From: a virus
DNA length: 24,808 nucleotides
Reading direction: 5' to 3' (one strand)
IMG/VR virus record: IMGVR_UViG_3300018015_000429
The notes under the pieces are model-generated. The model saw nothing but the letters and a program-made list of their open reading frames with translations, did no database searches and had not been told where the DNA came from. Below, piece after piece: positions 5,148 through 21,075 of the stretch; within the stretch, counting starts at the first letter, position 1, and the number at the start of each line of letters is the position of its first letter. A program made the position numbers and the translations under genes.

Positions 5148-5421
5148 CAAGTGGTGGCCACGGATGGCGTGTAGCCCTCTCTGTGGTTACACTAATGAGA
5201 TGCGGAGGCCTCACCTTACTTGTCTCTTCTGTCGAGTTAGAAAGTTCTTCTATGGGAAATACAAAGGGAAAGGTTTCCATTACAACAAGCTTATGCGAGT
5301 TGTCATGCCTGGGGACTGCTCGAATTATGTGCTCTTTATTGATAACAAGCGGCATCTGGTCGCTTTGAAGGCTGCTCTTCTGAAGCGGCTGCTGACGATT
5401 TGCGAGTGGCTAGCGAACTGA
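5131..5421 (+). CDS. Hypothetical basic, Cys-containing protein
   Basis: ATG at 5131 overlaps the portal end; fills the gap to the next gene; contains CSPLC and CLFC. Confidence 0.55.
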   Translation: MQKTLSKWWPRMACSPLCGYTNEMRRPHLTCLFCRVRKFFYGKYKGKGFHYNKLMRVVMPGDCSNYVLFIDNKRHLVALKAALLKRLLTICEWLAN

Positions 5422-5435
5422 TGGTGATTTGAATT

Positions 5436-5747
5436 ATGCCTGGACTTGAAGAAGCTAAGACTGTTTGGCGTTACCGGGTTCAGGACCCGGGCAAGTTTGA
5501 GAAGTTTCGCGTGAAGGAGCTTGGGAAAGGCGTCAAAATCACCGTTGGCAAGGTGAAGGGTAGCGACCGCTGGGAAATACAGAACTACATGTTTGAAAAG
5601 CAGCGGTTCAAAACCCGTGAACAGGTTCGCAAGTGGCTTGACACGCATTTGAAGGGAGAGATTCAGACTCTCTTAGACTTCAAGGCTTGGAATGAGTATC
5701 GCCGAAGAGTCATGAACGCTTACGTTCAAATCTCAGACGTACGGTGA
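5436..5747 (+). CDS. Small head-module protein; resembles a domain I recall as often adjacent to or fused with prohead proteases
   Basis: GGTGA RBS upstream; pattern RYRVQDPGKF...GVKITVGK...EIQNYMFEK...EQVRKWLDTH; located just before the protease gene. Confidence 0.6.
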   Translation: MPGLEEAKTVWRYRVQDPGKFEKFRVKELGKGVKITVGKVKGSDRWEIQNYMFEKQRFKTREQVRKWLDTHLKGEIQTLLDFKAWNEYRRRVMNAYVQISDVR

Positions 5748-5754
5748 CGTGAAA

Positions 5755-6876
5755 ATGCAGCTCAAGTATTATGTTCCGTTCAAGGCGCAAGAAGGCGTCG
5801 ACGCACAGTTTGCCTTAAAAGAGAAGCTGATCAATATCGAAGGGCTCGCTATTGACACGAGCGTAAATAAGAATAGGTGGCAGGTTCCAGAGGAGGACCT
5901 TGACTTTTTCACTGAAACGCTTAGAGGAGCTCAGTTGCGTGCGGATCATGCTGAAAGCGTTTTCATGATTGTTGGCAAAGTGCCGGAAGCGAAGCGCCAG
6001 GGGCAAGAAGTTTTTTTCAGGGCTGAGGTCGGCGGGGAAGAGAAACTTATTGACAAGATTCTACGTGGGTACGTGAAGTATGTTAGTGTCCAGGTTGATA
6101 GTGACGATGTTGAGTGCAGCAAGTGTCATCAGCAAACTCGGAAGGAAGGCCTACTCATTCACTTATGCGCCCCAGATGCTTGGGAAATCGTGCACAAGCC
6201 CACCGTCCGAGAGCTCAGTATTGTTGCTTCTCCCGCTTACGAGAAAACCGAGTTTACGCCTGTTGGCTTCGCGGCTGCAATGAACGAGAATCAGTCTGAG
6301 CAGCTCGCAAACTTTTCACAGTCACTTCAAAGTGATGATGTGGGTTCTGGGCGTGAGCCGCAAGAACCTGAAAAACAACAATCAAACACAAAAGAGGTGA
6401 AGCACTTGCCTGAACAAAATGCTCAGCAAGCAGCTTCTCCGCATCAAGCGCAAGGAGTAGTTAACGTCGCACCAGGAGAAGGTGCGCCGAAAGAGCATAC
6501 GTATCAGCAGTACATCGACCAGTTGACGCAGCTTAAGCAGCAGATAATGCAGAGGCCTGGAGCTTCCGACGCTGAACTCGACGACTTGAACAAGAAAATC
6601 GCAGATCTCGAGAGTGAACTCGCGAAGAGAGCGAAAAAGGCGGAGCTGGGAAGGAAAATCAGCGAACTGTCGAAGAAGGTTGGCGAGGAAGCGCAGGAAG
6701 GCCAGGAAGAGGGCGAAGAGGCGAACGGTTCAAGTGCAGCGGAAGCGAAACATGCCAGTGGCAAGGGCATCGTTGGGGCCATTGAAGTATCGAACCCTGA
6801 TAGTCTCGGCAATTTTGACTGGTTCAAAGACCTGATCAAGGCTTCACGCAAGCTTAGCGCTGGATTCAAGGGTTAA
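5755..6876 (+). CDS. Prohead maturation protease (HK97/herpes-like serine protease fold) fused to a C-terminal scaffold
   Basis: GGTGA at 5743-5747 then ATG 5755; IEGLAIDTSVNKNRW, ADH (His), VSVQV, RELSIVASPAY (Ser); acidic coiled-coil C-terminal half. Confidence 0.85.
   Translation: MQLKYYVPFKAQEGVDAQFALKEKLINIEGLAIDTSVNKNRWQVPEEDLDFFTETLRGAQLRADHAESVFMIVGKVPEAKRQGQEVFFRAEVGGEEKLIDKILRGYVKYVSVQVDSDDVECSKCHQQTRKEGLLIHLCAPDAWEIVHKPTVRELSIVASPAYEKTEFTPVGFAAAMNENQSEQLANFSQSLQSDDVGSGREPQEPEKQQSNTKEVKHLPEQNAQQAASPHQAQGVVNVAPGEGAPKEHTYQQYIDQLTQLKQQIMQRPGASDAELDDLNKKIADLESELAKRAKKAELGRKISELSKKVGEEAQEGQEEGEEANGSSAAEAKHASGKGIVGAIEVSNPDSLGNFDWFKDLIKASRKLSAGFKG
6406..6876 (+). CDS. Nested in-frame scaffolding protein (internal start in the protease gene)
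   Basis: GAGGTGA at 6394-6400, 5 nt before an in-frame TTG at 6406, at the end of a low-complexity linker; product would be 156 aa, Q/E/A/K-rich and helical. Confidence 0.65.
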   Translation: MPEQNAQQAASPHQAQGVVNVAPGEGAPKEHTYQQYIDQLTQLKQQIMQRPGASDAELDDLNKKIADLESELAKRAKKAELGRKISELSKKVGEEAQEGQEEGEEANGSSAAEAKHASGKGIVGAIEVSNPDSLGNFDWFKDLIKASRKLSAGFKG

Positions 6877-6886
6877 GGGATGACAA

Positions 6887-7279
6887 ATGAGTGTACCAGT
6901 TTTTGAAGGAACAACACCGCTAGTCTCTGATCGTTATACTCTCACGTTCATCGCGGGCGAAGACCTCTTGCCCGGATATCTTGTCGAGATCAGCGCTGAC
7001 TGGACAGTGAAGAAATGCACGAGCGTGAACAGTCTCAAAGTTGTCGGCATAACGTTGAGCGCGGCTCTAAATGGGAAGGCAGTTACCGTTGTGAACAGGG
7101 GACTTTGCAGAGCAAAAGCATATGGCACGATCACCGCAGGCGACCAGATAATTTCTACAAGCGGAGGCACCGGAATCGGACTTATCCAGAGCGACCAAGG
7201 AAAGAAGGACTCTAGCGTCATGGGCATAGCAGTGGCTGGAGCTGCAAGCGGCGGCACTGCTTACATCATACTTTGGTAA
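6887..7279 (+). CDS. Head decoration/cement protein (DUF2190-like beta-tulip)
   Basis: 130 aa between scaffold and MCP; Gly/Ala-rich pattern AGEDL..G.LV, VVGI, GKAVTV...G, ITAGD.I, MGIAVAGA. Confidence 0.7.
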   Translation: MSVPVFEGTTPLVSDRYTLTFIAGEDLLPGYLVEISADWTVKKCTSVNSLKVVGITLSAALNGKAVTVVNRGLCRAKAYGTITAGDQIISTSGGTGIGLIQSDQGKKDSSVMGIAVAGAASGGTAYIILW

Positions 7280-7290
7280 GGCGGTTTTGA

Positions 7291-8184
7291 ATGAGTTTTC
7301 AAAGAGACGCTTTAACATGGGTTGACACCGGGGCAGTAGCGTATCCCGCGTTGCACCAGCACATCATCGAATTGACCATGCCCGCACTTATCGTCAAGCG
7401 TTTGCTGCCTGAGTTTCCGTTGGTTGCAGGACGAACCGCGACGTTCGTAAAGGAAAAAGGAAGCAGAAGCATTGGCATCAGCGAGATCACCGAGGGCGCC
7501 GAGATTCCGATGGATTTCACGCCCCTTGACTATGTGAGTATCACGCCCTACAAGAAGGGCGAACGGATCCGTGTACCTCGCGAGCAGATTGAAGACCTCT
7601 ACATCCCAGTAATAGAACAGCAGCTCAGACGTCTGGCAAGACGTGTAGCCTACCAGATTGACAAGGACTGCCTCACATGTATTGACGCTGCGGCTGCCAA
7701 TTCAAGCGGCGGCACAGGGACCAGCATGGGAGCGACAGGAACAGAGTTCACAGTCTCGGGCGGCATCGGTACGAAGGATATTCTGTGGGCTGACGCGAAG
7801 ATTGCAAGTTACAACTTCCTCGCTGACAGCATCCTCTGCAATCCGATTAACGCTCGCGATCTAAAGTACCTCCCGCATTTCAGCCTAGCTATGCAGTACG
7901 GTGAACCAGTAATCCAGTCAGGAGCAATCGGCAAAGCGTACGGTTTAGACTTGTACGTGAGTACCGTTGTGTCTGCAGGCACAGCGTACGTGTTGAGCAC
8001 GGGTCAAAACCTAAGTGGTTCTTATGCTCCCCTCGGATTCTTCGTCATCAAGCGGCCTTTGCTGTCTGATTTGGACGTCAAGAAAGAGTTCGACGCAGTC
8101 GACGTTAGCTTGACGACGAGGTATGCGCCTGTTGTCACGGTCGGAGAAGCAATCGTCAAAATAACCGGCTTGAATACAACTTAG
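7291..8184 (+). CDS. Major capsid protein, HK97 fold
   Basis: 297 aa; EITEGAEIP, KKGERIRVPREQIED, RRLARRVAYQIDKD, ILCNP, GKAYGLDLYVS and TRYAPVV motifs; canonical position. Confidence 0.92.
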   Translation: MSFQRDALTWVDTGAVAYPALHQHIIELTMPALIVKRLLPEFPLVAGRTATFVKEKGSRSIGISEITEGAEIPMDFTPLDYVSITPYKKGERIRVPREQIEDLYIPVIEQQLRRLARRVAYQIDKDCLTCIDAAAANSSGGTGTSMGATGTEFTVSGGIGTKDILWADAKIASYNFLADSILCNPINARDLKYLPHFSLAMQYGEPVIQSGAIGKAYGLDLYVSTVVSAGTAYVLSTGQNLSGSYAPLGFFVIKRPLLSDLDVKKEFDAVDVSLTTRYAPVVTVGEAIVKITGLNTT

Positions 8185-8194
8185 AAAAGCCTGA

Positions 8195-8224
8195 TTTTCC
8201 CTTTCTTTTTTTCCCTGTTTCTTC
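8195..8224 (+). terminator. Archaeal-type oligo-T/pyrimidine terminator after the MCP gene
   Basis: ttttccctttcttttttttccctgttt-like pyrimidine run just after the TAG at 8184. Confidence 0.6.
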
Positions 8225-8269
8225 ATCATTTCCATTTCATAGTTACAATCTTGAAGGCGTGTTTGAGAT

Positions 8270-10603
8270 ATGAGTTCGGACAACAATAAGGGGTTAGCCC
8301 AGAGCATTCAGGTCAACGGTTTGACGTGGGCCAAGACGTTGATGATTTGTGCAATCCTAGTGTGTGCTGGGGTTGCCGCGTATTTTGGCGCCAATGTCTC
8401 CATGAGTGTCAGTCTTGCGGATAGGGTGCAAAACGTTGAAAATCGTATCGACATTCCCGTTAACAGTACCTTAAGCGCATTCCAGAAGAGCAACACGTTT
8501 CTTGTGATCCCACACGGTACCGGAGTATGCTTAATGAATGGTTCAGGATACTTCCAAGAATTCCTCGGAAATCAGACTCAAGTAATCATGGATGGGCTGA
8601 ATAATGCTTCAATCAGCGGTGGGAGCGTTTACGTTCAAGCGGGTAGTTACTCAGCTTCTGTCATCATTCAGAATAATACTCGATTCATCTTAGAGAAAGG
8701 CGCCACAGGAATAACGTACTCTGTAGCTCCTGGCGCTTACTGCATTATAGATGATTTCAACAGCGGCATATTCCAGTACTATGCTAACGGCAGCCTTTAC
8801 AGTCAATTCGATTATGCGCATAGCAACCTGCTTGTGCAGTCTGCTAATTTGACTTCTGTTTACGCTACAACCCTAGATCAGCTTAGCAGCGGTCAAGGCG
8901 TCAAAGTTCTGCACTTCATCGTCGAGAGCGGAACAAGCTTTCCATCTCCAATTGAGGAGCGAGTGTTCTTCAGAAGCGACCAAGGATACTTATATGTCTA
9001 CAACAGCGGATCTTGGACTGCAATCGGTGCCATCCCAAGCACGTATCCATACGCTAATCTCACAGGAGTTCCGCAAACTTTTCCGTACACTAACTTAACA
9101 AGCGTGCCTCAAACCTTTCCATACGCGAACTTAACGGGGCCACCCACACAGTATCCTTGGGCAAACTTGACGGGAATCCCTCTGCTCATTTATGCTAATG
9201 GTTCTCAGGGTCTCACAGCAGATTGGAATATTACGGGTTATGGCATTTTTGGCGCAACGTTATTGAACAGTACTCAGATTAATGCTAACTATTTCTGGTT
9301 GAACGGACAGAACCGCACTGATACGCTTGCCTATCCCATTGAACCTGTCGCTTACATCATTGACTATTCAGACGGAATCACGGCGCGAGTGAAAAACTGC
9401 ACAACTGGACAAGTAGACTACGCGAATTCCAATCAAACGCTAGCCGTTCAATACGCCTTTAATCATACAGACTGGACGGGTGCGCATGGAACACAAAAAG
9501 TGGTGCTGAGAGGTAACTTCAGCCTCAACTATTATCCAAACGTGCCCGCATATGCAGATATCGAGATTCAAGGCTATCTGAACGTAGTCAACAAAGCTGC
9601 TTTTATGCTCTGTTTCGATGATAGTCTGGCAATTCAATACAGCACTTACTTCAAGAACCTAACCTCGATATGGGGTTACAGAGGAAATGAGGCAGTTGTC
9701 GTTGATTGGCTTGCTCATGCAGGAACAACAAACACAACTTATACAACTCTTGCGAACCTGAAAGAAATGCGCGATGCAGGATGGAGTTTCTACAGTCACG
9801 GATGGTACAGTATTGACCTAAGCGCTGCTACTGTAACCCTTTCCCAGCAAGATCAAGAGATTCGGCAAAGCAAAGACTGGATTGAACGAAATCTTGGAGT
9901 ACGCGTCGATTCTATACAGTGGCCTAATGCTAAGCAAGGCGATATGGAAATGGCCAGGCAATACTACAATTACCTTGCTTACGGAAACTGGAAATCATGG
10001 CCAAACCAAACGTGGAACTATATCTCAGACTCCATGAGCGCATATTTTCCGACAGAAACAAACTTCAACGGCTCAAAACAAGACGGTGGAGTCATCGCGG
10101 CTGCTGCGTGGTATGCAGTTAACAGTACAGGCTCAGGATCAAACGGCGAGCTTGCAATTCTAACGTTCCACGGAACGATGACTAATTACTGGTTCAACCT
10201 GTGCATGGGAAACCTGAGCAGTTTCGGTCTTCCAGTTCTGACTTGGCGAGATGTTGACTACTACCTGAGCAAGCAACCGAAACCGACTATTGCAGGAGTA
10301 GATATTACTCTTAGAAATGAAGGAAATCAAACAGCTTGCGTTAACGGAACTTGGATAAAGCATAATCTCGGAGTAATTCCAAACGCAACATCAGTAACGC
10401 TAGGCAACTTCACATACATCAATAGTACTGCTTACTATATTGGCCCCTTCGTCATAGCATCCTCAATGAATTCAACATGGTTCCAAGTAGAATTTCTAAT
10501 CTGGAACGCTGGAACAATCACGCCCGTTGCAGTAACAGATCAACGAACGCTCATCTGGACTGCTTACTACGAGAAAATTATCATCTATCCAGCGCAAACA
10601 TAA
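8270..10603 (+). CDS. Membrane-anchored, sequon-rich multidomain protein: tailspike/fibre-like modules, NodB/CE4 polysaccharide-deacetylase-like domain and C-terminal beta-sandwich
   Basis: N-terminal TM (TLMICAILVCAGVAAYFGA); GGSVYVQAGSY beta-helix-entry motif; FPS...VFFRSDQGYLYVYNSGSW fibre motif; four (Y/F)P(Y/W)xNLT repeats; CFDD / SHGW / WPN / LTFHG CE4-like motifs; about 32 N-x-S/T sequons counted by hand. Confidence 0.8.
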   Translation: MSSDNNKGLAQSIQVNGLTWAKTLMICAILVCAGVAAYFGANVSMSVSLADRVQNVENRIDIPVNSTLSAFQKSNTFLVIPHGTGVCLMNGSGYFQEFLGNQTQVIMDGLNNASISGGSVYVQAGSYSASVIIQNNTRFILEKGATGITYSVAPGAYCIIDDFNSGIFQYYANGSLYSQFDYAHSNLLVQSANLTSVYATTLDQLSSGQGVKVLHFIVESGTSFPSPIEERVFFRSDQGYLYVYNSGSWTAIGAIPSTYPYANLTGVPQTFPYTNLTSVPQTFPYANLTGPPTQYPWANLTGIPLLIYANGSQGLTADWNITGYGIFGATLLNSTQINANYFWLNGQNRTDTLAYPIEPVAYIIDYSDGITARVKNCTTGQVDYANSNQTLAVQYAFNHTDWTGAHGTQKVVLRGNFSLNYYPNVPAYADIEIQGYLNVVNKAAFMLCFDDSLAIQYSTYFKNLTSIWGYRGNEAVVVDWLAHAGTTNTTYTTLANLKEMRDAGWSFYSHGWYSIDLSAATVTLSQQDQEIRQSKDWIERNLGVRVDSIQWPNAKQGDMEMARQYYNYLAYGNWKSWPNQTWNYISDSMSAYFPTETNFNGSKQDGGVIAAAAWYAVNSTGSGSNGELAILTFHGTMTNYWFNLCMGNLSSFGLPVLTWRDVDYYLSKQPKPTIAGVDITLRNEGNQTACVNGTWIKHNLGVIPNATSVTLGNFTYINSTAYYIGPFVIASSMNSTWFQVEFLIWNAGTITPVAVTDQRTLIWTAYYEKIIIYPAQT
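9044..9181 (+). repeat. Four 36-bp (12-aa) intragenic repeats
   Basis: YPYANLTGVPQT / FPYTNLTSVPQT / FPYANLTGPPTQ / YPWANLTGIP. Confidence 0.9.
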
Positions 10604-10624
10604 TCCCCCTTTTTTAGTCTCTTT
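10604..10624 (+). terminator. Oligo-T terminator after the 777-aa gene
   Basis: tccccctttttttagtctcttt-like run directly after the TAA. Confidence 0.55.
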
Positions 10625-10648
10625 AAAATTCATTCGAGATGTTGAAGA

Positions 10649-11362
10649 ATGGGTTCAGCAACTATCCTTGCAGGAAATACTTACGTTGATGTAGTGCACG
10701 GTCTCTCCTTTACGCCGACAATCGATGAGATCGTGCTAGTGCCTCAGGATGATCTAGGCGGTAGAGATTTCTGGCCTAGCAATCCAGGTCCCACAACTTT
10801 TCGCATAAACATTTCCATGGTAGACCCTGATACAAACCATACTTTCAGCTGGCAGCCTGTTCTACCAACTCTCCCAACACCACCACCTAGTGCTCCATCT
10901 CCTGACATCTTCATTAGCGCCAACGATATTCAAGCACAGCTCAACGCAGCATATGATTCTTCAAGTCTTATCTACACCGTTTTCGGCTTGCCGGTCTCCC
11001 AAGCAAGCTTCCAAGCGCACGTGAACTTCGCAAACACGTACATCCTCAACATTATAGGACCCGGAGGAGACCCTACTAGCAGTCGTTATCAGACAGCAGT
11101 ACTTACAGCAATGGACATTGCCTGTATAAGAATTCTAGTGGTCAGCCTTGGGGGAAGCCTTGTAGGAGCCTTCGACTACTTCATCGGAGATATGAGAGTT
11201 GCCAGAGCAGGACCGTACGCAACCGCAATAAAAGAGGCGCTTCAAGGCTTCCATGATGACTTGTTAAGGGTTCTCATGAACCTTTCGACGTCTGTTGTCA
11301 CGGTAGAAGCAAGTGCCAAGGATGATGTGCCAACGTATAAGGGAGGGCTCATGAATCCGTGA
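10649..11362 (+). CDS. Head-tail adaptor (gp6/gp15-like helical domain) with an N-terminal beta-sandwich and a Pro-rich linker
   Basis: C-terminal part FISANDIQAQL...FQAHVNFANTYI...AVLTAMDIACIRIL...DYFIGDMRV fits adaptor patterns; linker PVLPTLPTPPPSAPSP; position after the MCP. Confidence 0.65.
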   Translation: MGSATILAGNTYVDVVHGLSFTPTIDEIVLVPQDDLGGRDFWPSNPGPTTFRINISMVDPDTNHTFSWQPVLPTLPTPPPSAPSPDIFISANDIQAQLNAAYDSSSLIYTVFGLPVSQASFQAHVNFANTYILNIIGPGGDPTSSRYQTAVLTAMDIACIRILVVSLGGSLVGAFDYFIGDMRVARAGPYATAIKEALQGFHDDLLRVLMNLSTSVVTVEASAKDDVPTYKGGLMNP

Positions 11363-11490
11363 GTAAAGTCCTGGGAAAGGGTAACTATATCCTTGCCAAG
11401 GTCAATGGTACCAAAATGGTGCTGACAAGTACTGAGATGCAGCAGCTTATCAATAATGGCTATGATGTTGAAGTGGTCACGCCAACCTAA
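11359..11490 (+). CDS. 43-aa small protein MSKVLGKGNYILAKVNGTKMVLTSTEMQQLINNGYDVEVVTPT (below the ORF-track cutoff)
   Basis: GTG overlaps the adaptor TGA (GTGA); GGAGG RBS lies just upstream. Confidence 0.55.
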   Translation: MSKVLGKGNYILAKVNGTKMVLTSTEMQQLINNGYDVEVVTPT

Positions 11491-11502
11491 GGCCTATCAG
11501 GG

Positions 11503-11760
11503 CTACCATTTCTGTTCTGCCCAGCTTCTGTTATCAACGAGATAGAAGTCCTTGACCTTTCGATGCTCAAATACTGTCAGTCCAAAAAGCTTATCCAAAT
11601 CTACGATTCTAACTGGATAGTTTTCGCGCTCATGCACTAGCTCCTGAGTTAATCTACCTGAGACTACTGGGTTAATGAGTAACGCTATTGGTTGCCTTCC
11701 TGCTTCTCGGCATAATCTAATTGCTTCCTGAATTTGCGCGAGTATGATTGTCTTTGGCAT
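11503..11760 (-). CDS. Antisense 85-aa protein resembling an isolated HK97 capsid A-domain
   Basis: GAGGA RBS and TTTAAATAT TATA-like box (11802-11794) on the minus strand; QIQEAI...PIALLINP...RL...KLFGLTVF...FYLV pattern parallels the MCP. Confidence 0.6.
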   Translation of the reverse strand: MPKTIILAQIQEAIRLCREAGRQPIALLINPVVSGRLTQELVHERENYPVRIVDLDKLFGLTVFEHRKVKDFYLVDNRSWAEQKW

Positions 11761-11914
11761 TCCTCGTCATCCTGTACTTGTTTGGGAAAATCAATATTTA
11801 AACTTGAAGGAGCATGCCAAACTCAGGCCTGTGACTCTCAGAAGCTTTGACTTTTGATACTTTTTCCCTTCTCCGGTACAAACGTTTAGGCTTTTCTGAG
11901 GGCAGGAAATCTCT

Positions 11915-12031
11915 TTGAACGAGACTTTAAGGAAATTGAGTAAGTTAGTCTGTAAGAACTGTTCCAACTCTGATTATGACCTTTGCAGCAGTTGCGAGAT
12001 TCACAAGTTGATAAATGAACTCTTGAAGTGA
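11915..12031 (+). CDS. 38-aa zinc-finger microprotein MNETLRKLSKLVCKNCSNSDYDLCSSCEIHKLINELLK
   Basis: CxxC-x7-CxxC; TTG start; stop lies 4 nt before the next ATG (12036). Confidence 0.6.
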   Translation: MNETLRKLSKLVCKNCSNSDYDLCSSCEIHKLINELLK

Positions 12032-12035
12032 AAAG

Positions 12036-13658
12036 ATGGGCACTGTGCCTCAGAGCTATTACGATTTCATCGTGCATTACGCGCCGTACTTTTACGTGAT
12101 TCCAACCTTGCTGACGGCAGACGCGGCACTAGGACAGAAGAACGTAACGGTTGCGGATGGAACAAAGTTTCAAGCGGGATATCCTGTTCAAATCTATGAT
12201 AATATGCATAGCGAGTGGAACCTTGTTTCAAGCATTAACGGAAACATTGTCACTATGCAGAATAATCTTGTCTATGCCTATCAGATAGCTCAGAATGGAA
12301 CTGTAGAAGGCCCAGATCCTGGTTATGGTCAAGGCGTCTTCCCGGCTGCTTTTGCTATAGACTTTCTTTATCAAGCTTACTCGAGCAGCCAATTTACTAC
12401 GAAGCAGATAGATATCCTTACAAAGATCAGAGCCCTTGCAGACTTTATTCTCACGCAGCAATGCACAAATGCAGCTAAGAAAGCCTACGGCGGCTTCCAA
12501 AATGCTCAAGGAAGTACTGAATACTGGAGTGTCGACGCCGGCCGCTGCATACCTGCTCTTCTAGAAGCCTACAGCTTAACAGGTACAGCAACGTACCTTG
12601 CCGCAGCAGTCCTTGCGGGCTCTACTTTCCTATATAACATACAGCATAATCCCAGCCTTCTGGGCGTCCATGACAAGTATTATGGTGGCTTCGCAAGGTA
12701 TGTCGACATTAACGATGCCTGGAGCGAGCTGATGGACGTTGAAAACCTCTACTGCTTAATTGGACTTTCAATGCTAGCTCAAACTTACGATGGAGTACAC
12801 ACATCTATATACACCGCAATGATGACTGATCTAGTTAGCTCCCTGCGAAGCGGCTATGAGCAATTTTACTTGTGGTTTGACCCTAAGCCGACTGGAGACG
12901 GAAAATGGCATCGTGTAAGCCTTGGCGAAACACAAATCTATGACGATCCTTTCAGCTTCGCGCTCTTGGGTCTCTTCACGTATGAAGGATGGAGCACGAC
13001 CGCTGAGAATGTGTACAAGTTTCTTGGTAGTGTCCAGGCATCAGCTCAGTACCCAGCATATAATCCTGCTATCTGCTGGCCAGGATATATCGATGTTGTT
13101 CAACGGTTCCCAGCATGCGCCTATTACGATGCTCTAACGATCGGGATCCTTGGATCCATTCGTGCAGCGCATGATAAGCCTGCTTACTCTCTGAGCATGC
13201 AGGTTCTCGCTGAGTACTCAAATCAATTTCTTTTCTGGGGTCCTATATTCACGGATTACAGTCCGATAACTGCTCAAAAAGCAATGGCAAACGTAACGTG
13301 GCTAGCGCGCTTTTTCCTAAGCTATCAAGAGCCACAAACAGATATGACGAATATGCTGGCCACAAGTGGTGAAGATCTACAGCTTTACCCTGTGATAGAA
13401 GCTGCTGACACAATTACTTGGGGCAACGAGTTGGATTTGAAAGGTATGGTCACTCCGGGCGCGACAGGGGAAATCGTCATTGAGCCTGGCTACATCACGG
13501 AGAATAATATTACGGTTCACAGTTTCTTGCCTATTCGAGTGCATGATAAGATTCGCCAGGCAGGCGTGGACTATGAGGTTAAGACGGTTCAAGTTCACGA
13601 TTTCCAAGGAGATCCAGTGTTCTATAAAAGCGTCTGTAGGAAGCTGATCAATCAATGA
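12036..13658 (+). CDS. Head-closure/stopper (gp16-like C-terminal domain) fused to a large (alpha/alpha)-toroid glycosidase/cyclase-like domain
   Basis: Last ~95 aa (LKGMV...ITVHSFLPIRVHDKIRQAGVDYEVKTV...YKSVCRKL) match the stopper pattern; the N-terminal region has repeated helix plus YGGF/GKW turns typical of six-hairpin toroids; position between adaptor and terminator. Confidence 0.6.
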   Translation: MGTVPQSYYDFIVHYAPYFYVIPTLLTADAALGQKNVTVADGTKFQAGYPVQIYDNMHSEWNLVSSINGNIVTMQNNLVYAYQIAQNGTVEGPDPGYGQGVFPAAFAIDFLYQAYSSSQFTTKQIDILTKIRALADFILTQQCTNAAKKAYGGFQNAQGSTEYWSVDAGRCIPALLEAYSLTGTATYLAAAVLAGSTFLYNIQHNPSLLGVHDKYYGGFARYVDINDAWSELMDVENLYCLIGLSMLAQTYDGVHTSIYTAMMTDLVSSLRSGYEQFYLWFDPKPTGDGKWHRVSLGETQIYDDPFSFALLGLFTYEGWSTTAENVYKFLGSVQASAQYPAYNPAICWPGYIDVVQRFPACAYYDALTIGILGSIRAAHDKPAYSLSMQVLAEYSNQFLFWGPIFTDYSPITAQKAMANVTWLARFFLSYQEPQTDMTNMLATSGEDLQLYPVIEAADTITWGNELDLKGMVTPGATGEIVIEPGYITENNITVHSFLPIRVHDKIRQAGVDYEVKTVQVHDFQGDPVFYKSVCRKLINQ

Positions 13659-14638
13659 GCGTAGAGGATCCAGTTACAACGGTTATCCGACTACTCACAA
13701 AGAATGTGAGAGTAGTCAAGGATGATAGTTCTGTTGCAAGCTTCTATGCTAGCGAGCAATGGTACGACCGTGAACTCTTCAAGAACTACGATGCTCAATT
13801 AACCGTAGGCATACGGCAGATTCAGGACCAGAAGCTTAACATCGCAGGGACAGTACGCCAGCAGAAAGGACTACTTGCCGTCAATCTATGGGCTATGGAC
13901 CGTGTAGGAAGTTCTGATCCTGGACGTATGATTCGAAAGAAGCTTGTTGAAGAGATCAAACGCATCGTAAGACAAAACATGAAGGTTCCAAACCAGACGA
14001 TCTATGATTTTGCTGGCCTTGGATATCCCTCTGGAGACCCACATAAAGCCTTCTCATCTGCTGCTGCAACCGAGCTGATCCCCTCAAGTACTAGCTGGGT
14101 AGAACTTACAAACCTCGAGTACCAGAACATTTGGTACAGCGATAACATTCGCTATTCAAAAAGCACGTCCGTTAATCTTCAGGATGCCTTGATGCTCTTT
14201 CGCTTCAAGCCCTCGAGTAAAGCTCCTGTAGCCTCACAGATTCTTTTAGCTTTCGAAGGATACGGTATTGCTCCCGCTGGGAACGGTTTCACTATCAAGG
14301 TATGGAATAACGTTTCTTCTGCTTGGGAAAGCGCTCAAACGGGTTCTGGTGGATCCGACCAAGTAGTAACTATTACGTTAATATCAGCTCTCACGAATTA
14401 CATTGATGCTTCTGGGTATGTTTGGCTGCTTGCCCGGACGACTAACCCGAGTAATGGAACGACTCCTGCAGTACTCTACTGCGACTATGTAAGCTGCACA
14501 GTTAGCGTTAACGGCATCACATATCTCGACGTCGTCAGCTATGGAGATAAGGACAAAGTTGACGTCAAGCCCATCCTTTTCAGAACAGAATTCACTCTCA
14601 AATCATGGGCATTTGAGACTATCCTAGGTATCTATTAA
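13655..14638 (+). CDS. Tail terminator/completion protein with a large inserted beta-rich domain
   Basis: ATGA-coupled; VNLWAMD...RKKLVEEIKRIVRQN and C-terminal FRTEFTLKSW frame a roughly 175-aa Ser/Thr/Trp-rich beta insert; directly precedes the tail tube gene. Confidence 0.6.
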   Translation: MSVEDPVTTVIRLLTKNVRVVKDDSSVASFYASEQWYDRELFKNYDAQLTVGIRQIQDQKLNIAGTVRQQKGLLAVNLWAMDRVGSSDPGRMIRKKLVEEIKRIVRQNMKVPNQTIYDFAGLGYPSGDPHKAFSSAAATELIPSSTSWVELTNLEYQNIWYSDNIRYSKSTSVNLQDALMLFRFKPSSKAPVASQILLAFEGYGIAPAGNGFTIKVWNNVSSAWESAQTGSGGSDQVVTITLISALTNYIDASGYVWLLARTTNPSNGTTPAVLYCDYVSCTVSVNGITYLDVVSYGDKDKVDVKPILFRTEFTLKSWAFETILGIY

Positions 14639-14652
14639 AAGGTGAAAAAAGA

Positions 14653-15528
14653 ATGAGTGTTGAAACGTACGGTGCGCAAGAATCAAGAATCTACTTCGTA
14701 GCGGAATCTACCTATGGCGTAACCCCTGCAAGCCCAGCTATGCTGGGAATAAACGCGGAAGAATCAGATCCATTAGTCGATCCAGCATTGATCGGAGTCA
14801 TGGGCCTTGGAAGTAGAGACCTCCAGGCACTCTATGCTGGCCTTCGAAAGATAACTCTAAAAATCCCGAACAAACTCAGCAGTCTAGCACCCATCAGCTT
14901 AATCCAGCACGTGCAAACCTTGAGCAGTCTTAGCATACAGACGATCTATTACAAGGGCCTCTGGTCAGCTCCAACAAACATCATCAGCTACCTATTCTCC
15001 GGCTGCAAGGTTAACAAACTAACCGTTGAATGCAAGCTTGAAGACGTGATAAAGTCAACCGTAGAACTGCTTGGCCAAAGCTGCACAAGGTTGACCGCTC
15101 TCATACAGAATGCAACATACGGCGATTTCGTAGGTGCAGTTCCCTTCAACAGCAGCTTCGTCCAAAGAGGAGTAAGCGGCGGCACAGGTCTTGTAACATT
15201 GACAGATATAACGGACTGGAAATTTGAGATTGACAATAACCTCAAGCCTGTTGGAACGATTCAAAGCGGCGGCACAGGGCTCATCCTAAAGTACCTTCGT
15301 GAGCGCAACAGAAAACTTAGCGGAGAGCTGACAATGGAATTCGAGAACGATAGTGAAATGCAGGACTTTCTCCTAGATACTGAATTCAGCCTATCATTCG
15401 GCTTAGGAAGCACAAACACCGCCTTATTCACATACTGCAAATGGGACCAGATTGAGACGCCAGACAAAATGGATGACTTAATCAGCGTAAAGGCCAAATT
15501 CAAAGCACGCAATCTCTTCATAAGCTAA
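14653..15528 (+). CDS. Major tail tube protein
   Basis: GGTGA RBS; N-terminal YFVAESTYGVTP, FSGCKVNKLTV, WKFEIDNNL, RKLSGELTMEF; precedes the chaperones. Confidence 0.85.
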   Translation: MSVETYGAQESRIYFVAESTYGVTPASPAMLGINAEESDPLVDPALIGVMGLGSRDLQALYAGLRKITLKIPNKLSSLAPISLIQHVQTLSSLSIQTIYYKGLWSAPTNIISYLFSGCKVNKLTVECKLEDVIKSTVELLGQSCTRLTALIQNATYGDFVGAVPFNSSFVQRGVSGGTGLVTLTDITDWKFEIDNNLKPVGTIQSGGTGLILKYLRERNRKLSGELTMEFENDSEMQDFLLDTEFSLSFGLGSTNTALFTYCKWDQIETPDKMDDLISVKAKFKARNLFIS

Positions 15529-15541
15529 GGAGGGCCCTCGG

Positions 15542-15747
15542 ATGGCGGAGGTTAAGATTCTGGAGGATTTCGGCCGGGAGGCAGACCTGCGTAAGAAGTG
15601 GATGCGAATCTGGGAAAGGCTTGGGGCTCGCATCGTGAAGTTTCCAAAGTGGATGCAAGTAATCATCCTTAAGACGTGAACACGGCAATCGAAAACCGCG
15701 TGGCAACAATGGAGATGATTAATCATGCCAAAACAAGAAGAGTTTGA
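15542..15747 (+). pseudogene. Small helical ORF apparently split by a 1-nt deletion near 15671
   Basis: GGAGG RBS; MAEVKILEDFGREADLRKKWMRIWERLGARIVKFPKWMQVIIL(K)T* stops at 15679, and the -1 frame continues DVNTAIENRVATMEMINHAKTRRV* into the chaperone start. Confidence 0.5.
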
Positions 15748-16066
15748 CATCGACGAGAGTTACGGCGAAGAATACAAAGGGCACTATATTGCAAGGCAGA
15801 TTCCCATAGCCGTTCATGACGAGATTGTTGAGAAGTACACGGAGTTCAATCATGAGACTGGTAAGGTTCTAAGGATAAATCACACTGCAATTGGACTCGA
15901 ATTCATCATCGCAAGTTTAAAGCAGCCGCCTAGTAAGCCCATTACTCTTGAAAAGCTTTTGAGCCATGATATCGAAACATGTGTTCCTCCCGATCTAGCA
16001 GACTTTCTAAAGAAGAAAGTGAACGCAGTAATTACGACATCTCTTGAGGAAAGAAAAAACTCTTAA
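15725..16066 (+). CDS. Tail assembly chaperone G
   Basis: 113 aa after the tail tube gene, ending in ...ERKNS with an in-frame A AAA AAC slippery heptamer. Confidence 0.8.
   Translation: MPKQEEFDIDESYGEEYKGHYIARQIPIAVHDEIVEKYTEFNHETGKVLRINHTAIGLEFIIASLKQPPSKPITLEKLLSHDIETCVPPDLADFLKKKVNAVITTSLEERKNS
16054..16060 (+). other. Programmed -1 ribosomal frameshift site (A AAA AAC)
   Basis: X XXY YYZ heptamer in the correct phase (AGA AAA AAC TCT TAA); the -1 frame reads KKLLRAMRRETPHP... into ORF 16072-16263. Confidence 0.85.
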
Positions 16067-16071
16067 GAGCG

Positions 16072-16263
16072 ATGAGACGCGAAACACCGCATCCAGCTCT
16101 AACTAAGTACAGACTTTGCAAAGAATTCGGATGGACACTCCAGGAGCTAGATAAGCAGCCTTCCAAAAGGATCCAGGAATTTCTGATTATCATTAAGGAG
16201 ATTGACCGGCAAACTAAACTTGAGATTGAAAAGGCTAAAAAGGAGACTAATCGAGCCCGTTGA
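16072..16263 (+). CDS. Tail assembly chaperone T segment (C-terminus of the GT fusion, 15725-16263)
   Basis: LCKEFGWTLQELDKQP is a typical gpT-like motif; frame is -1 relative to G and open from the slippery site. Confidence 0.8.
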   Translation: MRRETPHPALTKYRLCKEFGWTLQELDKQPSKRIQEFLIIIKEIDRQTKLEIEKAKKETNRAR

Positions 16264-16631
16264 GCATAGAGTTTCGTGTTGAAGTTGGCGGCGTTGAAGA
16301 ATTCGCTAGAAAGATGCGCACATTAGATGAGAACACGCAAGCATATGTACAGGATGCTTTAAACGAGGTTGGCCAGCTTGTTGCTGCTCGAGCGCGCCAA
16401 CTAGCTCCCGTACGAACAGGCCTCTTGATATCAAGCATATTTGCCGAGATAATCTACAAATGGGTCGTCAAAATCGCATGCAGAGTACCCTACGCACTCT
16501 TCCAGGAGCTAGGAACAAGGTACATTCAGCCCCGCTTTTTCTTGACACGCGCCCTCGAAGAGAACAGAATCAATTTTCTCACGATTATCGCAGCCGGCTT
16601 ACAAAGAGCTGCAGATGAGGCATCAACATGA
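16260..16631 (+). CDS. HK97 gp10-like tail completion/neck protein
   Basis: GVEEFARKMRTL...ARARQLAPVRTGLLISSI...YALFQELGTRYIQPRFFLTRAL is the HK97 gp10-family signature. Confidence 0.85.
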   Translation: MSIEFRVEVGGVEEFARKMRTLDENTQAYVQDALNEVGQLVAARARQLAPVRTGLLISSIFAEIIYKWVVKIACRVPYALFQELGTRYIQPRFFLTRALEENRINFLTIIAAGLQRAADEAST

Positions 16632-17734
16632 GCATGGGCGAAATATCCGTAAACGTAAAGGCAATCAACGAGGCTACGTCTGAGTTTGAAGCGGTAGCTG
16701 CTGACGCTGCCTCTATGTCTTCTGCTGTTTCAGCTTCACCCTTGATTTTGCGACTCGAAAATCTTGTCTCCCCTGAGCTCAATGCTGTCGCTGAGGATGC
16801 AGCAAGAGTCAAAGCAAGCGTTGAAGCTTCCCCGGTGGCAATCAGTTTCGCACCTATCCCTCTTCCATATATCCCTCCGATTGAGGTTCCCCCGATTCAA
16901 ACAGGTTTCGCGCCTATTGAGCTCCCTGTAATCCCGCCGATAGAAGCTCCCACGGTAACGATAGACGTTCCACCAATTGAAGTTCCCCCTATCCCACCGA
17001 TTGACACTACGCTCATTCAAGATAGCATTAGCCAGGTCGGCACGCGTGCTGTTGAGATGGGTAGTGAGATTTCGGATGCTTCTTCGGTGGCGGCAAGTTC
17101 TTTTGCTGATGTTGGAGCCGGCGCAACGGAGATGGGAGCGCAAGTTGAGGCAGCATCTTCTTCTTTTACGGATATGCAGACGCACGTCGAAACGTGTAAT
17201 GTGAGCTTGCGCTCAATTTCAAGTGGTTTTAGAAGCTTCGGGATGATGGGTACAGAAGTTACGATGCTTGCTAGCAATTTCGGGCTTGTTGACAAGGAAA
17301 CAGCAAAATGGATGCGTACGATATCGCTTATGATAACGGTTGTGGCCACTGCAGCTCGAATGTACAGCTTCCTTTCAATGATGACTACCGGCCAGACGGC
17401 TGCTGTTGCGATTGAAGGAACTACAGAAACGGCCACTGCAGGCGCCATCAGCCTTTCAACAGTCGCCCACAACATCTATGCTACTGCATGCCAGATTGCA
17501 ACTGCAGCCGAAAACGCCTTGAACATCAGCCATGCAACCTTCCTAGCCTTGACGGGAGTTGGAATCGCCGTTATCATAGCAGCAGCTGCAGCAGTATCGA
17601 TTTTTGCGGCAAATATGAACAATGCCACGGCAAGCGTCAACAGTTACAATACTGCAGCAAGCAAGGTTCCAACGGTTACTAGAAACATCCAGCGTGCTCA
17701 AGAACAGAATATGCTTCGACGTGGTGTTGAATGA
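16628..17734 (+). CDS. Short tape measure protein with a Pro-rich repeat region and C-terminal hydrophobic segments
   Basis: N-terminal EISVNVKAINEATSEF is a TMP-type start; Ala/Ser/Thr-rich; LTGVGIAVIIAAAAAV TM-like segment; located between chaperones and hub. Confidence 0.7.
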   Translation: MSMGEISVNVKAINEATSEFEAVAADAASMSSAVSASPLILRLENLVSPELNAVAEDAARVKASVEASPVAISFAPIPLPYIPPIEVPPIQTGFAPIELPVIPPIEAPTVTIDVPPIEVPPIPPIDTTLIQDSISQVGTRAVEMGSEISDASSVAASSFADVGAGATEMGAQVEAASSSFTDMQTHVETCNVSLRSISSGFRSFGMMGTEVTMLASNFGLVDKETAKWMRTISLMITVVATAARMYSFLSMMTTGQTAAVAIEGTTETATAGAISLSTVAHNIYATACQIATAAENALNISHATFLALTGVGIAVIIAAAAAVSIFAANMNNATASVNSYNTAASKVPTVTRNIQRAQEQNMLRRGVE

Positions 17735-20637
17735 GCATCGGCAGCGTTGGGATCCCCCAGATCGCAGTTGTTTTAGGCACTGTTACACCCCCTCAAGGGG
17801 ACGTCATCGATGTTAGAGTGCATCTTGGCTGCACGAAAGAAGTCAGCAGTTTTGAGTTGACACTTCAGAACTGGAATAAGAAGTACAGTCCAGGCGGATC
17901 CACTCCGATAACTGTAGGCTCTAACGGCAGTATCTACGTTGGCAGAGGAACGAACGTACCCCCGATTATCACTTGCAAGGTTGAGGATATCGAGTATGAT
18001 GAACCATCGGTTGACGAGCATTATCTTAAGGTGACGGGCCGCTGCTGGGGAGAACGGCTTTTCAGCAGGGTCGTAAGCAGGACGTACACGAATCAGAAGG
18101 GCGAAGCAATAATCAAGGACTTGATGGATAATTTCGCAGGCCTCAGCCATACCAGAGGCGGCGTTGAACTTATCGAGAATACGAGTACAACCTATGCATT
18201 ACTTGACTATGACAATACCACACTTTGGGATATCCTCAAGTACATTGCCGAAACCTCGGATCTGAACGGAGCTATCGGCTTTGATTCTCGTGTTGCTCCT
18301 GATGGCAAGTTTGAGTTTTTCCCCTTGAACAGCAAAGCAGCAAGCGTATCACTAATAAATGTTCCAGAAGTTACGGGCTACAAAAAAGGCATTACTAGAA
18401 TTCGAAATAAGATATACGTTTTCGGCGCTGCAGAGAAAGTCTATCCTGTAAGCATGGATTTATTCACGGAAGGAACTAGCGGCTGGACAGCAGATGCAGG
18501 AGAGACATTAAGCGCAGATGGTACTAACAAGGTTTTCGGAAGCTACAGCGTATATATTCAAGGCGTTTCCACTTGGCCGTACCCTGCTTGCCGTATGAGG
18601 CTTGCCTTGCCCTCGAGTGTTGACTGCGGTGGCCATAATGGTTTTCAGCAGCTTAACTATGCTGTACGCAAGACTGGACAATGCATTGGCGGGAACTATT
18701 GGTTTTACTACTTTTACGTTCGTCTCATGACTGATGCTAACAACTATTTTGAGAAAATGTACACGATTGCTGAAGCTGATCAGCAGGACCAGCGCTGGGC
18801 ATACAATACAGATAGACTTGGCAAATCCTATGAAGTTCAAAGTAGTACGGAGCCTTACTGGGTTGCTTATGGAAATCCAGATTGGAGAAACATAAACTAC
18901 ATAGAGTTTGCTGGCTCAGGTGTCTGCGGTCCAGTTAACACGAATGGCTGGATTGCAATTAACGTTGACAAGCTTTTCTTTGATAAGGGTAGATACTCAG
19001 CAGTTGAGCAAGTTGCTGGCGATGAACTTCGTGAGCTCGCAGAGACTGATGAGGAACTTGTTAGTGATGCTGAATGTGACCTACGGGCCAAAAGTCTGCT
19101 AGCGTACTATAAGGACCCAGCGGAGTCTTTAACTGTCAAAAGCACGATTCTTGATTATGGTACCACGCCTATTCTTCCTGGAGACACTGTGCACGCTACT
19201 TTTCCAAATGAGAATGTCGACGGTGATTATCGCGTTGACACTATGGAGTATTATGCCGATAGCAAAGAGCAGACGCTTGAAGTAACTGTTGAGCTTGGAA
19301 AAGTCGCACCGCAACTTGCGGATTATCTTTATGGTATGCGCTCGAAAAGCATGAGCGTTGAAAAGCTTGCCAGGACAAAGGCTGGAATTGGCCAATTCGC
19401 AGTAGGATCCTTAAGTGCTGGTGCCGGTGGCGGTGGTGGGAATCATCATATTGGCCATGAAGTAGGAGACGTTAACGGCATTCAATATAGCAGCCCAGGA
19501 GTCGGCGGCTGGGATCCCCTCACAGGCTGGGTCGCACCGAACTTCATAGGGCCCCTTAGTGATACTGCAGCAGTCACTACTTTCAGAACGAAAAACAAGG
19601 CTAGCAGCATACCTATTGATCATCATTTTCAGCCTAGCGATAATGAATATGGAGTTTTGGGATGCGCTACTTATCATTGGAAAGAGATCCAAGGTAAACT
19701 ATTATTCTTGTATCAGGGCCTAGTTGCGCCCTATGGCGGCATAAAGATTCTCAATCAAGGTGACGCAAATCCCTTAGTATCTCTGATTAAGGACTACCTT
19801 GAATTCGGTCCTGGTGGCGCCTCAGCTCTTGATACTTGGCTTCACCGGATAGCAGCAGGAGAGATTGAGGTCAAGAATGACCTTGTACCAACAGGAGACA
19901 ATGCGGGGAAGATTGGTTATGGTGCTCCTTCAGGTGGTACAGCGCTTCGTTGGAGCGAGATTCACGCTGTAGACATTTACGGCAGCCAGTTTCATTTAGC
20001 TGGAAACTTTCTTCCGGACGCTGATAATCTTTATGATATTGGTGCTACTTCGCAGCGTTGGCGGGATATTTACCTCTCCGGAGCCATCAAAGGCTTGGCT
20101 GGCGGAGTAGCCGTTCAGTTTCTGCCAAATGTTGATAATCTGTATAATCTAGGCGCTGTAGGAGCGCGCTGGGGTAACCTTTATCTTGCAGGTGTCGCCG
20201 ACGTTGGCTGGCTGAATATCGCTGGTACCATAGTCATCTCAGACGCGCGTATTCTGCAGAATGTAACAATGGACGCTGGCCTAATTACAAGTGGAAAACT
20301 CAACAGCTTAAGCAGACTGCCAAACGGCACAAGCGGCTATGTTCTTGAGGCTGAAGGCGCGAGTGACCCGATGTATGTTAACCCGAATGGACGATATACT
20401 CCTGCTGGCCACACGCATGCTGCAGGAGACATCATCAGCGGGGTCTTAGCTGAGGCAAGATGTCCCAATGTTTACGCTGGTGCAATAACGTTCAATGGCG
20501 GGATAACTGCTTCTGATTATAAAAGCAGTTACGGGACTTCAGGTTTAACAGCTGATGTTGCCGTTGCGAAGGTGGGTGGCGGCACTCGTACGTTGCATTT
20601 TCAAAATGGACTATACGTTGGATACACTGACAGTTAG
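17731..20637 (+). CDS. Baseplate hub/Tal-like protein fused to an inserted CBM-like domain and a C-terminal tail-fibre region
   Basis: Hub motifs FELTLQN, LKVTGRCWGERL, TLWDILKYIAE, RIRNKIYVFG, ILPGDTVH; Trp/Tyr-rich insert (~18457-18985); GGGGG linker; repeats FLPDADNLYDIGATSQRWRDIY; HTHAAGDI fibre motif. Confidence 0.8.
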   Translation: MSIGSVGIPQIAVVLGTVTPPQGDVIDVRVHLGCTKEVSSFELTLQNWNKKYSPGGSTPITVGSNGSIYVGRGTNVPPIITCKVEDIEYDEPSVDEHYLKVTGRCWGERLFSRVVSRTYTNQKGEAIIKDLMDNFAGLSHTRGGVELIENTSTTYALLDYDNTTLWDILKYIAETSDLNGAIGFDSRVAPDGKFEFFPLNSKAASVSLINVPEVTGYKKGITRIRNKIYVFGAAEKVYPVSMDLFTEGTSGWTADAGETLSADGTNKVFGSYSVYIQGVSTWPYPACRMRLALPSSVDCGGHNGFQQLNYAVRKTGQCIGGNYWFYYFYVRLMTDANNYFEKMYTIAEADQQDQRWAYNTDRLGKSYEVQSSTEPYWVAYGNPDWRNINYIEFAGSGVCGPVNTNGWIAINVDKLFFDKGRYSAVEQVAGDELRELAETDEELVSDAECDLRAKSLLAYYKDPAESLTVKSTILDYGTTPILPGDTVHATFPNENVDGDYRVDTMEYYADSKEQTLEVTVELGKVAPQLADYLYGMRSKSMSVEKLARTKAGIGQFAVGSLSAGAGGGGGNHHIGHEVGDVNGIQYSSPGVGGWDPLTGWVAPNFIGPLSDTAAVTTFRTKNKASSIPIDHHFQPSDNEYGVLGCATYHWKEIQGKLLFLYQGLVAPYGGIKILNQGDANPLVSLIKDYLEFGPGGASALDTWLHRIAAGEIEVKNDLVPTGDNAGKIGYGAPSGGTALRWSEIHAVDIYGSQFHLAGNFLPDADNLYDIGATSQRWRDIYLSGAIKGLAGGVAVQFLPNVDNLYNLGAVGARWGNLYLAGVADVGWLNIAGTIVISDARILQNVTMDAGLITSGKLNSLSRLPNGTSGYVLEAEGASDPMYVNPNGRYTPAGHTHAAGDIISGVLAEARCPNVYAGAITFNGGITASDYKSSYGTSGLTADVAVAKVGGGTRTLHFQNGLYVGYTDS

Positions 20638-20679
20638 CGCACGCGGTCGGGTTAATGTTAATGTTGAGGTTTGTATAGT

Positions 20680-21075
20680 ATGAAGCGGAAAATTGATGAG
20701 GAAATTAAGAAGCTTAGTCCTGGAGACCTCGTAAAGGTTACGTGGGGCGATGCAAGCATAGGCAAGAGCCTTGCATGTGGCACAAACGTTGACGTGGACG
20801 TTGAAAGCTGGGGTATCTACTTGGCAGTTCTGGGCACGAACAACAAACACATAATCCTTGCTCAAAACAATTTCCGCTATGCCGATGGCCTTTATGACTT
20901 GGATTATACGGCTATCCCTTTGCAGTGGAGCATAAAGGTCACTGTCCTTGAGAAAAATCATGTTTCCTGTCAGAAAGCCAAGGATCTGGTTAACAGTTTC
21001 TTGATTGGTGGAAGACGGACGGAACGTCGTTCGAGGCAGCAGAAGGTACGGAATCACCGTGACAGACTGGGTTAA
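20680..21075 (+). CDS. Hypothetical protein (SH3/Sm-like beta-barrel pattern)
   Basis: GAGGT RBS then ATG 20680; GDLVKVTWGDA...ESWGIYL...IILAQ...TAIP pattern. Confidence 0.65.
   Translation: MKRKIDEEIKKLSPGDLVKVTWGDASIGKSLACGTNVDVDVESWGIYLAVLGTNNKHIILAQNNFRYADGLYDLDYTAIPLQWSIKVTVLEKNHVSCQKAKDLVNSFLIGGRRTERRSRQQKVRNHRDRLG

Follow-up and report, generated by a model that had tools for sequence, protein, structure and literature searches.

The DNA analysed here, IMG/VR record IMGVR_UViG_3300018015_000429, is one strand of 24,808 nucleotides, hereafter the window, and represents the plus-strand morphogenesis module of a head-tail virus. Set into this module on the opposite strand is a short gene for a protein of 85 amino acids, which is the subject of this analysis. 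The features of the module and of the gene are as follows:

1930-3372, plus strand: large terminase
3759-5147, plus strand: portal
5749-6876, plus strand: 375-aa head-assembly protein, between the portal and the 130-aa protein
plus strand, between the 375-aa gene and the MCP: scaffold-like 130-aa protein
7291-8184, plus strand: resident capsid protein (MCP), PF25209, with phrog_1650 (the "major head protein" family) as best PHROG match
7774-7971, plus strand: A-domain segment of the resident MCP (residues 162-227), as aligned to the 85-aa protein by profile methods
8270-10603, plus strand, after the MCP: 777-aa protein
plus strand, after the 777-aa gene: 237-aa protein
11359-11490, plus strand: conserved 43-aa late gene, convergent with the 85-aa ORF, the two stop codons lying 12 nt apart
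11491-11914: spacer from the 43-aa to the 38-aa gene, containing the cassette (ORF and predicted promoter)
11503-11760, minus strand: coding sequence, starting with ATG, of the 85-aa protein, a predicted stand-alone A-domain
11761-11812, minus strand: predicted promoter and short-leader block, containing TTTAAATA and nearly identical in the related locus L001
11795-11802, minus strand: TATA box TTTAAATA, archaeal consensus, 34 nt before the ATG
11915-12031, plus strand: conserved 38-aa Cys-rich late gene, the other flank of the cassette
plus strand, after the 38-aa ORF and in this order: 540-aa protein, AF_1625_C protein and tail tube

The most likely host belongs to Bathyarchaeia, because the relatives of the resident MCP carry the NCBI name Candidatus Bathyarchaeia and the sole match to the 85-aa gene in a species-genome collection is a Candidatus Bathyarchaeota MAG. 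The 85-aa protein recurs without a single change on metagenome contigs, the longest of 864 kb, and the element is therefore taken to be integrated as a provirus.

Several other genes of the module have features of their own. The 38-aa product, encoded directly upstream of the 540-aa gene, has a CxxC ... CxxC pattern and 55-67% identity in relatives, and is likely a zinc-ribbon microprotein of the neck region. The 43-aa gene overlaps the stop of the 237-aa gene and encodes a protein with no family assignment that is 74-93% identical among relatives, above its large neighbours. The 777-aa protein has a polysaccharide-deacetylase domain and is highly variable (49-75% identity); it was not detected in the eight related IMG/VR contigs L012-L019, where the gap from the MCP to the 237-aa gene is much shorter. 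Variability in the head module thus has a second location here. For the 375-aa protein, which occupies the protease/scaffold position and whose C-terminal half is acidic and coiled-coil-like, no Pfam or PHROG match was obtained, and conservation is 60-97% in all relatives. Near the end of the window, a 481-aa protein (22244-23689, plus strand) joins a P-loop N-terminus of ABC/AAA type to a GNAT acetyltransferase region, and a 31%-identical relative of it lies near the cassette-bearing provirus region of L102. In another Bathyarchaeia provirus, L107 (G054:C10), a gene between terminase and portal (3909-4964, plus strand) encodes a DUF362 protein with two 4Fe-4S ferredoxin motifs and looks like an insertion of the auxiliary-metabolic-gene kind.

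The 85-aa ORF is the sole sizeable minus-strand frame between the 43-aa and 38-aa genes, and upstream of it lie the 38-aa and 540-aa genes, both plus-strand late genes; a first, sequence-only reading of this DNA, which described an antisense gene within the late genes, was thus accurate in its placement. The protein itself matched no model in Pfam, PHROG or NCBIfam, and tblastn against 50,697 deposited phage genomes gave no match. That reading had also singled out conserved homologues as a point on which it could fail, and about 50 clusters of them were found (52 representatives at E<=1e-3 among 1.8 billion), and a separate search gave 13 clusters at 40-64% identity. None of the homologues carries a name or a Pfam family, a search with a broad alignment likewise gave no named proteins, and the PHROG matches among family members are stray ones only, one of them to phrog_1650, the best family of the resident MCP. 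Compared with L001, the gene has a dN/dS of 0.32, and in distant pairs synonymous sites are saturated (pS about 0.8 versus pN about 0.3). The best-conserved element of the family is the C-terminal D-[ND]-R-S-W-x-E-Q-K-[WF], which is invariant as amino acids while its codons differ synonymously (AGA/AGG/CGC, AGC/AGT/TCG, GAA/GAG, CAG/CAA). A DNA- or RNA-level element, considered on account of strong nucleotide conservation at the 3' end of the gene, was ruled out, since codons in the wider set vary synonymously.

Being short and without database annotation, the ORF might be no gene at all but a frame open by chance, lying opposite an intergenic part of the late operon. Against this stand a confident structure model and a conserved promoter block, both described below, while the homologue clusters, the pattern of substitution and the exchange of synonymous codons under fixed amino acids effectively refute it, and we give this explanation next to no weight. 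Comparative sequence data thus strongly support a real protein-coding accessory gene under purifying selection.

Upstream of the ATG, about 50 nt containing CTTCAAGTTTAAATA and CAAGTACAGGATG are almost identical to L001, whereas the proteins are 61% identical; the promoter block is better conserved than the coding sequence, and further upstream there is no alignment to L001. The TATA-like box of the sequence-only reading proved to be a consensus archaeal TATA box, at 11795-11802 on the minus strand. The ribosome-binding site that it also proposed fared less well: a GAGG is present, but just 1 nt separates it from the ATG, and the probable length of the leader is only about 12 nt. We read the block as a putative archaeal TATA promoter followed by this short leader, from which the gene would be transcribed separately, in agreement with the independent expression proposed earlier. 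A sigma-70 promoter scan is inapplicable to an archaeal host, and a terminator scan of bacterial type, with archaeal terminators outside its coverage, reported no terminator-like site. In the 24.8-kb window the motif TTTAWATA occurs at two sites, each 32-34 nt before a gene start. The other of these consensus boxes, TTTATATA at 380-387 on the plus strand, stands 32 nt before the 127-aa gene at 420 and is probably the promoter that opens the plus-strand block.

Placement of the gene was compared mostly among viruses with MCPs 77-87% identical to that of the window, together with one more distant provirus, L102:

Window and L001/L002: site after the 43-aa gene, antisense
L012-L019, eight IMG/VR contigs: between the 103-aa and 375-aa genes, antisense
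L020, the Bathyarchaeota MAG: between the 103-aa and 375-aa genes, sense, co-oriented with the head genes
L102, the more distant provirus: tail-like region, antisense

There are thus three insertion sites and both orientations, almost always antisense, and in the antisense cases the stop of the 85-aa gene lies about 10 nt from that of the convergent late gene. For 80 further IMG/VR loci with MCPs 65-99% identical, the gene was found in 7. Both sites are covered by 34 loci, of which 6 have the gene and 28 lack it. The closest comparison is with L022 (IMGVR_UViG_3300035660_000814), whose terminase, portal and MCP are 98-99% identical to those of the window and which is without the gene: by blastn and tblastn, its spacer between the 43-aa and 38-aa genes measures about 95 nt, as against about 425 nt in the window. 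These comparisons strongly support movement of the gene as a compact cassette of about 330 nt, consisting of the predicted TATA-box promoter and the ORF, among intergenic sites of the structural module. L022 is also mosaic in its own right over 4300-20891, with genes from terminase to MCP 97-100% identical to the window and neck and tail genes only 61-75% identical, a drop that implies a recombination breakpoint just after the MCP. More distant members of the family (38-46% identity) sit in small-gene arrays and point the same way as their neighbours, among which are an RNA ligase, an HTH protein, GH130 or a metallophosphatase, with no capsid genes in view. A conserved neighbouring enzyme gene was seen neither at any of the three insertion sites nor in the small-gene arrays.

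The fold was examined in predicted structures from two sources. With the family alignment as input, AF2 gave a model of the 85-aa protein with a pLDDT of 82.8 and a pTM of 0.71, in which helix 6-19, strand 24-29, helix 31-43, a variable loop and strands 61-65 and 72-76 are followed by a short terminal helix. An exhaustive comparison with 48,161 PDB representatives placed PF0899 (2pk8) at the top (Z 8.6, 79 of 94 residues aligned), and residues 249-336 of HK97 gp5, a stretch that we take to fall within the A-domain, superpose on the model with Z 7.7. All but one of the top 50 structural matches (49/50) are HK97-fold capsids or encapsulins, aligned over the A-domain. Foldseek, one of the checks suggested with the sequence-only reading, returned the same HK97-fold picture at E-values of 0.04-2. 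Similarly, the best match of the independent ESM Atlas model is a cluster with the automatic name "family 4C encapsulin" (TM 0.72), and SU10 and PF25209 capsid clusters are matched as well.

Sequence profiles lead to the same domain. Searched against PDB sequences, a profile built from the family alignment of 58 sequences matched best to SaPIbov5 Ccm at residues 235-305, the A-domain region (E 2.7e-4), followed by PF0899 (E 0.004), the Pyrococcus furiosus virus-like particle PfV (E 0.07) and Thermotoga maritima encapsulin (E 0.16-0.36); entries for these four proteins make up 8 of the 12 PDB sequences among the matches listed. Of the 58 members, 15 match NF041192 (family 4C; best E 2.6e-4), 4 match NF041190 (4A) and 1 matches NF041191 (4B), with PF08967 matched by 4 (best 7.6e-4) and Linocin_M18 by 5, while nearly every unrelated family was matched by a single member. 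None of these matches to PF08967 or NF041190-NF041192 reaches the curated cut-off (90 bits for NF041192), the 85-aa protein itself has no match to them, and a search of the Bathyarchaeota MAG with NF041192 gave one stray 15-bit match only. The KEOPS subunit Cgi121 (NF011465), matched by 3 members at a best E of 6e-4, was treated as chance, as no structural search backs it. Run over 201 Bathyarchaeia genomes, the family profile scored 27 bits on two frames, each about 300 aa in length. Upon inspection, both are 294-aa PF05065 capsid proteins of another Bathyarchaeia provirus (L107), encoded between a tail-tube gene and, on the opposite side, genes for terminase, portal and cement proteins. Aligned by hhalign, the family and this 294-aa MCP match with a probability of 91.3% (E 9.6e-7) over MCP residues 167-245.

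Could the likeness be convergence or an artefact of prediction, in a small alpha/beta protein of unrelated origin such as a regulator or an antitoxin? By the aligner's own note, Z-scores of 5-8.6 are common for small domains, the Foldseek E-values are modest, and the 85-aa protein taken alone lacks any Pfam, PHROG or NCBIfam match. Yet the leading structural matches belong with one exception to a single fold class and align the same domain, the independent ESM model gives an equal answer, and profiles that use sequence only land on A-domain regions, with an hhalign probability above 90% for the PF05065 protein; we consider such an artefact highly improbable. By these profile matches, homology of the 85-aa protein to the capsid A-domain can be taken as established independently of structure prediction. 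That it is a free-standing A-domain homologue of HK97-fold capsid proteins, as first proposed from the sequence, is strongly supported by the agreement of two independent structure predictors with the sequence profiles, as is the identity of its nearest named relatives, the Family 4 "A-domain encapsulins" (PF0899/PF08967).

The first proposal had been reached by a different route, through similarity to the MCP of the same element. The strings it quoted correspond to ORF residues 9-37 and 56-75 and to MCP residues 163-191 and 214-235, and its spacing from NP to GL (28 residues in the ORF, 32 in the MCP) is correct. As evidence, the gapless 29-residue similarity is at chance level: it has 6 identities in 29 and a BLOSUM62 sum of 4, whereas the average over shuffled ORFs, each scored at its best-matching 29-mer with the MCP, is 18.7, and BLASTP of the ORF against the MCP did not report the quoted alignment, its best match lying elsewhere (E 0.16). 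The register, on the other hand, is the one that profile methods choose. When the ORF family of 58 sequences is compared with the family of the resident MCP, hhalign pairs ORF residues 10-69 with MCP residues 164-227 (P 0.006, probability 6%), and the family HMM scores relatives of the MCP at up to 12.1 bits, always at residues 162-227, compared with a best of 3.8 bits for 720 shuffled or reversed control sequences; the window's own MCP was not reported in this search. The early alignment had caught a true but very faint signal. With 25 close homologues as input, AF2 modelled the resident MCP at a pLDDT of 34, and the secondary-structure string of this model fits the register but is unreliable. 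A complex prediction of the resident MCP with the 85-aa protein, run without controls, gave a score of 0.00 where the mark is 0.32 and bears neither way.

The further idea of a truncated mimic of the element's own MCP has to be given up, since the hhalign probability of 6% for that MCP compares with 91% for the PF05065-type MCP of another Bathyarchaeia provirus and Family 4 is also closer. In profile comparisons, the affinity to this heterologous PF05065 lineage is much stronger than that to the carrier's PF25209-type MCP. In pairwise identity, the 85-aa protein is 17-23% identical to any MCP, and about 17% to the carrier's own.

Among characterised systems, the closest in kind are the Family 4 proteins. 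A likeness of PF0899 to the HK97 A-domain has long been noted, as cited in one paper (PMC11476376), and Andreas and Giessen classed the PF08967 proteins, of about 100 aa, as Family 4 "A-domain encapsulins" (PMC8346489). Their range covers Euryarchaeota (Pyrococcus, Thermococcus) and two thermophilic Bacteroidetes genera, with genes downstream of hydrogenase, OsmC, GAPDH or DeoC and a function that is speculative (PMC8346489). Complexes with GAPDH and other enzymes are described for these proteins, which seem to be dimeric and not shell-forming (PMC8346489, PMC11664910); a 2024 review describes the sole Family 4 structure as a dimer unlike capsomer contacts, with no shell reported (PMC11664910). 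As in Family 4, this is a protein in the range of 85-100 aa made up of the HK97 A-domain alone, PF0899 (PDB 2PK8) is its best structural match, and 20 of the 58 family members have sub-threshold matches to Family 4 models. The settings differ, however, in that the 85-aa gene is viral or proviral and lies behind its own predicted promoter, in most cases antisense within a late operon, whereas Family 4 genes sit in two-gene operons behind hydrogenase, OsmC, GAPDH or DeoC (Family 4C, with orphan genes, is the exception to this enzyme-operon rule); the host here is Bathyarchaeia, as opposed to Thermococcales or Rhodothermus (PMC8346489); and the invariant RSWxEQK[WF] tail of the 85-aa family lies outside the PF0899 alignment.

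With the A-domain of complete HK97-fold MCPs (PF05065; HK97 gp5, PDB 1OHG), the protein shares the order helix, strand-NP, helix, FG-strand, strand, and the A-domain alignment spans its full length. Unlike these MCPs, it has no N-arm, no E-loop and no P-domain or spine helix, and therefore cannot build a shell alone. SaPIbov5 Ccm (PDB 7RWZ), whose A-domain region (235-305) is the best PDB sequence match of the family profile, offers a parallel in concept, as a capsid-derived protein of a mobile element that acts on the capsid assembly of another virus; it is, however, a full-length HK97-fold satellite protein that co-assembles with the helper capsid and redirects its size, whereas only an A-domain is present here. 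In its genetic layout the cassette recalls the morons of phage late operons, such as lambda bor and lom or HK97 gp15, a late-region moron that gives superinfection exclusion. Like them it is a single small gene with its own (here predicted) promoter between late genes, polymorphic in presence and absence among near-identical relatives and variable in site and orientation; it differs in its archaeal TATA promoter, its capsid-domain-derived product and the failure of the bacterial-type scan to recognise a terminator.

Late transcription reaching the 38-aa gene would have to cross the cassette in antisense, and read-through would collide with it, so that expression of the 85-aa gene probably falls in periods of late-operon silence, whether in the provirus or early in infection. 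The protein itself probably acts purely by binding other proteins. Our leading guess, offered tentatively, is that the gene serves against rival head-tail viruses in the same host by interfering with their capsids: the protein would engage the HK97-fold capsid subunits of such viruses and disturb capsomer or procapsid assembly, as a provirus-encoded, capsid-derived exclusion factor, while the carrier would be spared by the closer resemblance of the protein to a heterologous MCP lineage than to its own. The invariant C-terminal peptide may either cap a surface exposed by loss of the P-domain or dock a partner. We favour interference because the native partners of an A-domain are other A-domains around the capsomer axes, because the cassette looks like a prophage moron of the HK97 gp15 kind, and because the protein is far closer to a heterologous Bathyarchaeia MCP than to that of its carrier; the Gag-derived restriction factors Fv1 and enJS56A1 provide an analogy for interference by capsid-derived proteins. 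Several observations count against it. At 17-23% identity to MCPs, the capsomer contact surfaces may be lost; the C-terminal peptide has no counterpart in MCPs, which points to neofunctionalisation and not mimicry; the solved Family 4 dimer is unlike capsomer contacts (PMC11664910); the bacterial-type scan showed no terminator-like site; and co-orientation of the distant members in arrays would mean that a capsid poison is made beside the virus's own capsid.

Some of the same evidence would suit a role like that proposed for Family 4, in which a small, probably dimeric protein binds or stabilises a non-capsid partner (a host or viral enzyme or another factor), with the invariant C-terminal peptide as its docking element and capsids not its target. 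PF0899 as best structural match, encapsulin families 4C, 4A and 4B as nearest HMM families, the enzyme-bound dimers reported for Family 4 (PMC8346489, PMC11664910), the concentration of constraint on a peptide that MCPs lack, and the arrays of small non-structural genes around distant members all fit such a role; the lack of a conserved enzyme neighbour at the three insertion sites and scores far under the curated Family 4 cut-offs do not, and we consider it possible but somewhat improbable. A part in the carrier's own capsid, as a plug, a vertex or decoration subunit, an assembly chaperone or a modulator of size or assembly, might be expected of a cassette that in this virus group never lies outside the head-neck-tail morphogenesis module, points the same way as the head genes in L020 and encodes a protein in which profile methods see weak similarity to the resident MCP A-domain. 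This role is unlikely, and clearly more so than the preceding one, because near-identical viruses do without the gene: its absence from most comparable loci, including a relative with a 99% identical MCP, implies that it is not needed for assembly, and the usual antisense placement would oppose co-expression with the capsid genes. Overall, we put our confidence in the explanation as a whole, an accessory A-domain gene that moves as a cassette and has a more tentatively proposed role against the capsids of other viruses, at about one half.

Until now, free A-domains have been described only as cellular Family 4 proteins of hyperthermophilic Thermococcales and Rhodothermus, with one structure and a function that is not known (PMC8346489, PMC11664910), and we found no paper on virus-encoded free A-domains in the open-access literature. 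The family described here is new in being virus-borne and unnamed, with about 50 clusters outside Pfam, PHROG and NCBIfam, and it extends free A-domains to a wider set of habitats and taxa. It raises the question of whether a free capsid domain interferes with capsid assembly or has been recruited elsewhere. As a separate observation, BFVD holds many uncharacterised proteins of 70-130 aa from cultured phages with a free A-domain-like fold, examples being those of Bacillus phages SP-15, CP-51, BSP38, JL, Palmer and Slash and of Serratia phage Rovert; among phages of bacteria, too, this class may be common. A bolder proposal, which we regard as speculative and unlikely to hold in full, is that the cassettes are dominant-negative decoys against rival capsid assembly, a prokaryotic counterpart of Gag restriction, and that they, rather than truncated cellular encapsulins, are the source of Family 4. 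The family shares its fold with Family 4 and with a genuine capsid protein and is related to the two in sequence as well, so that viral cassettes of this kind could plausibly have been an intermediate on the way to Family 4.
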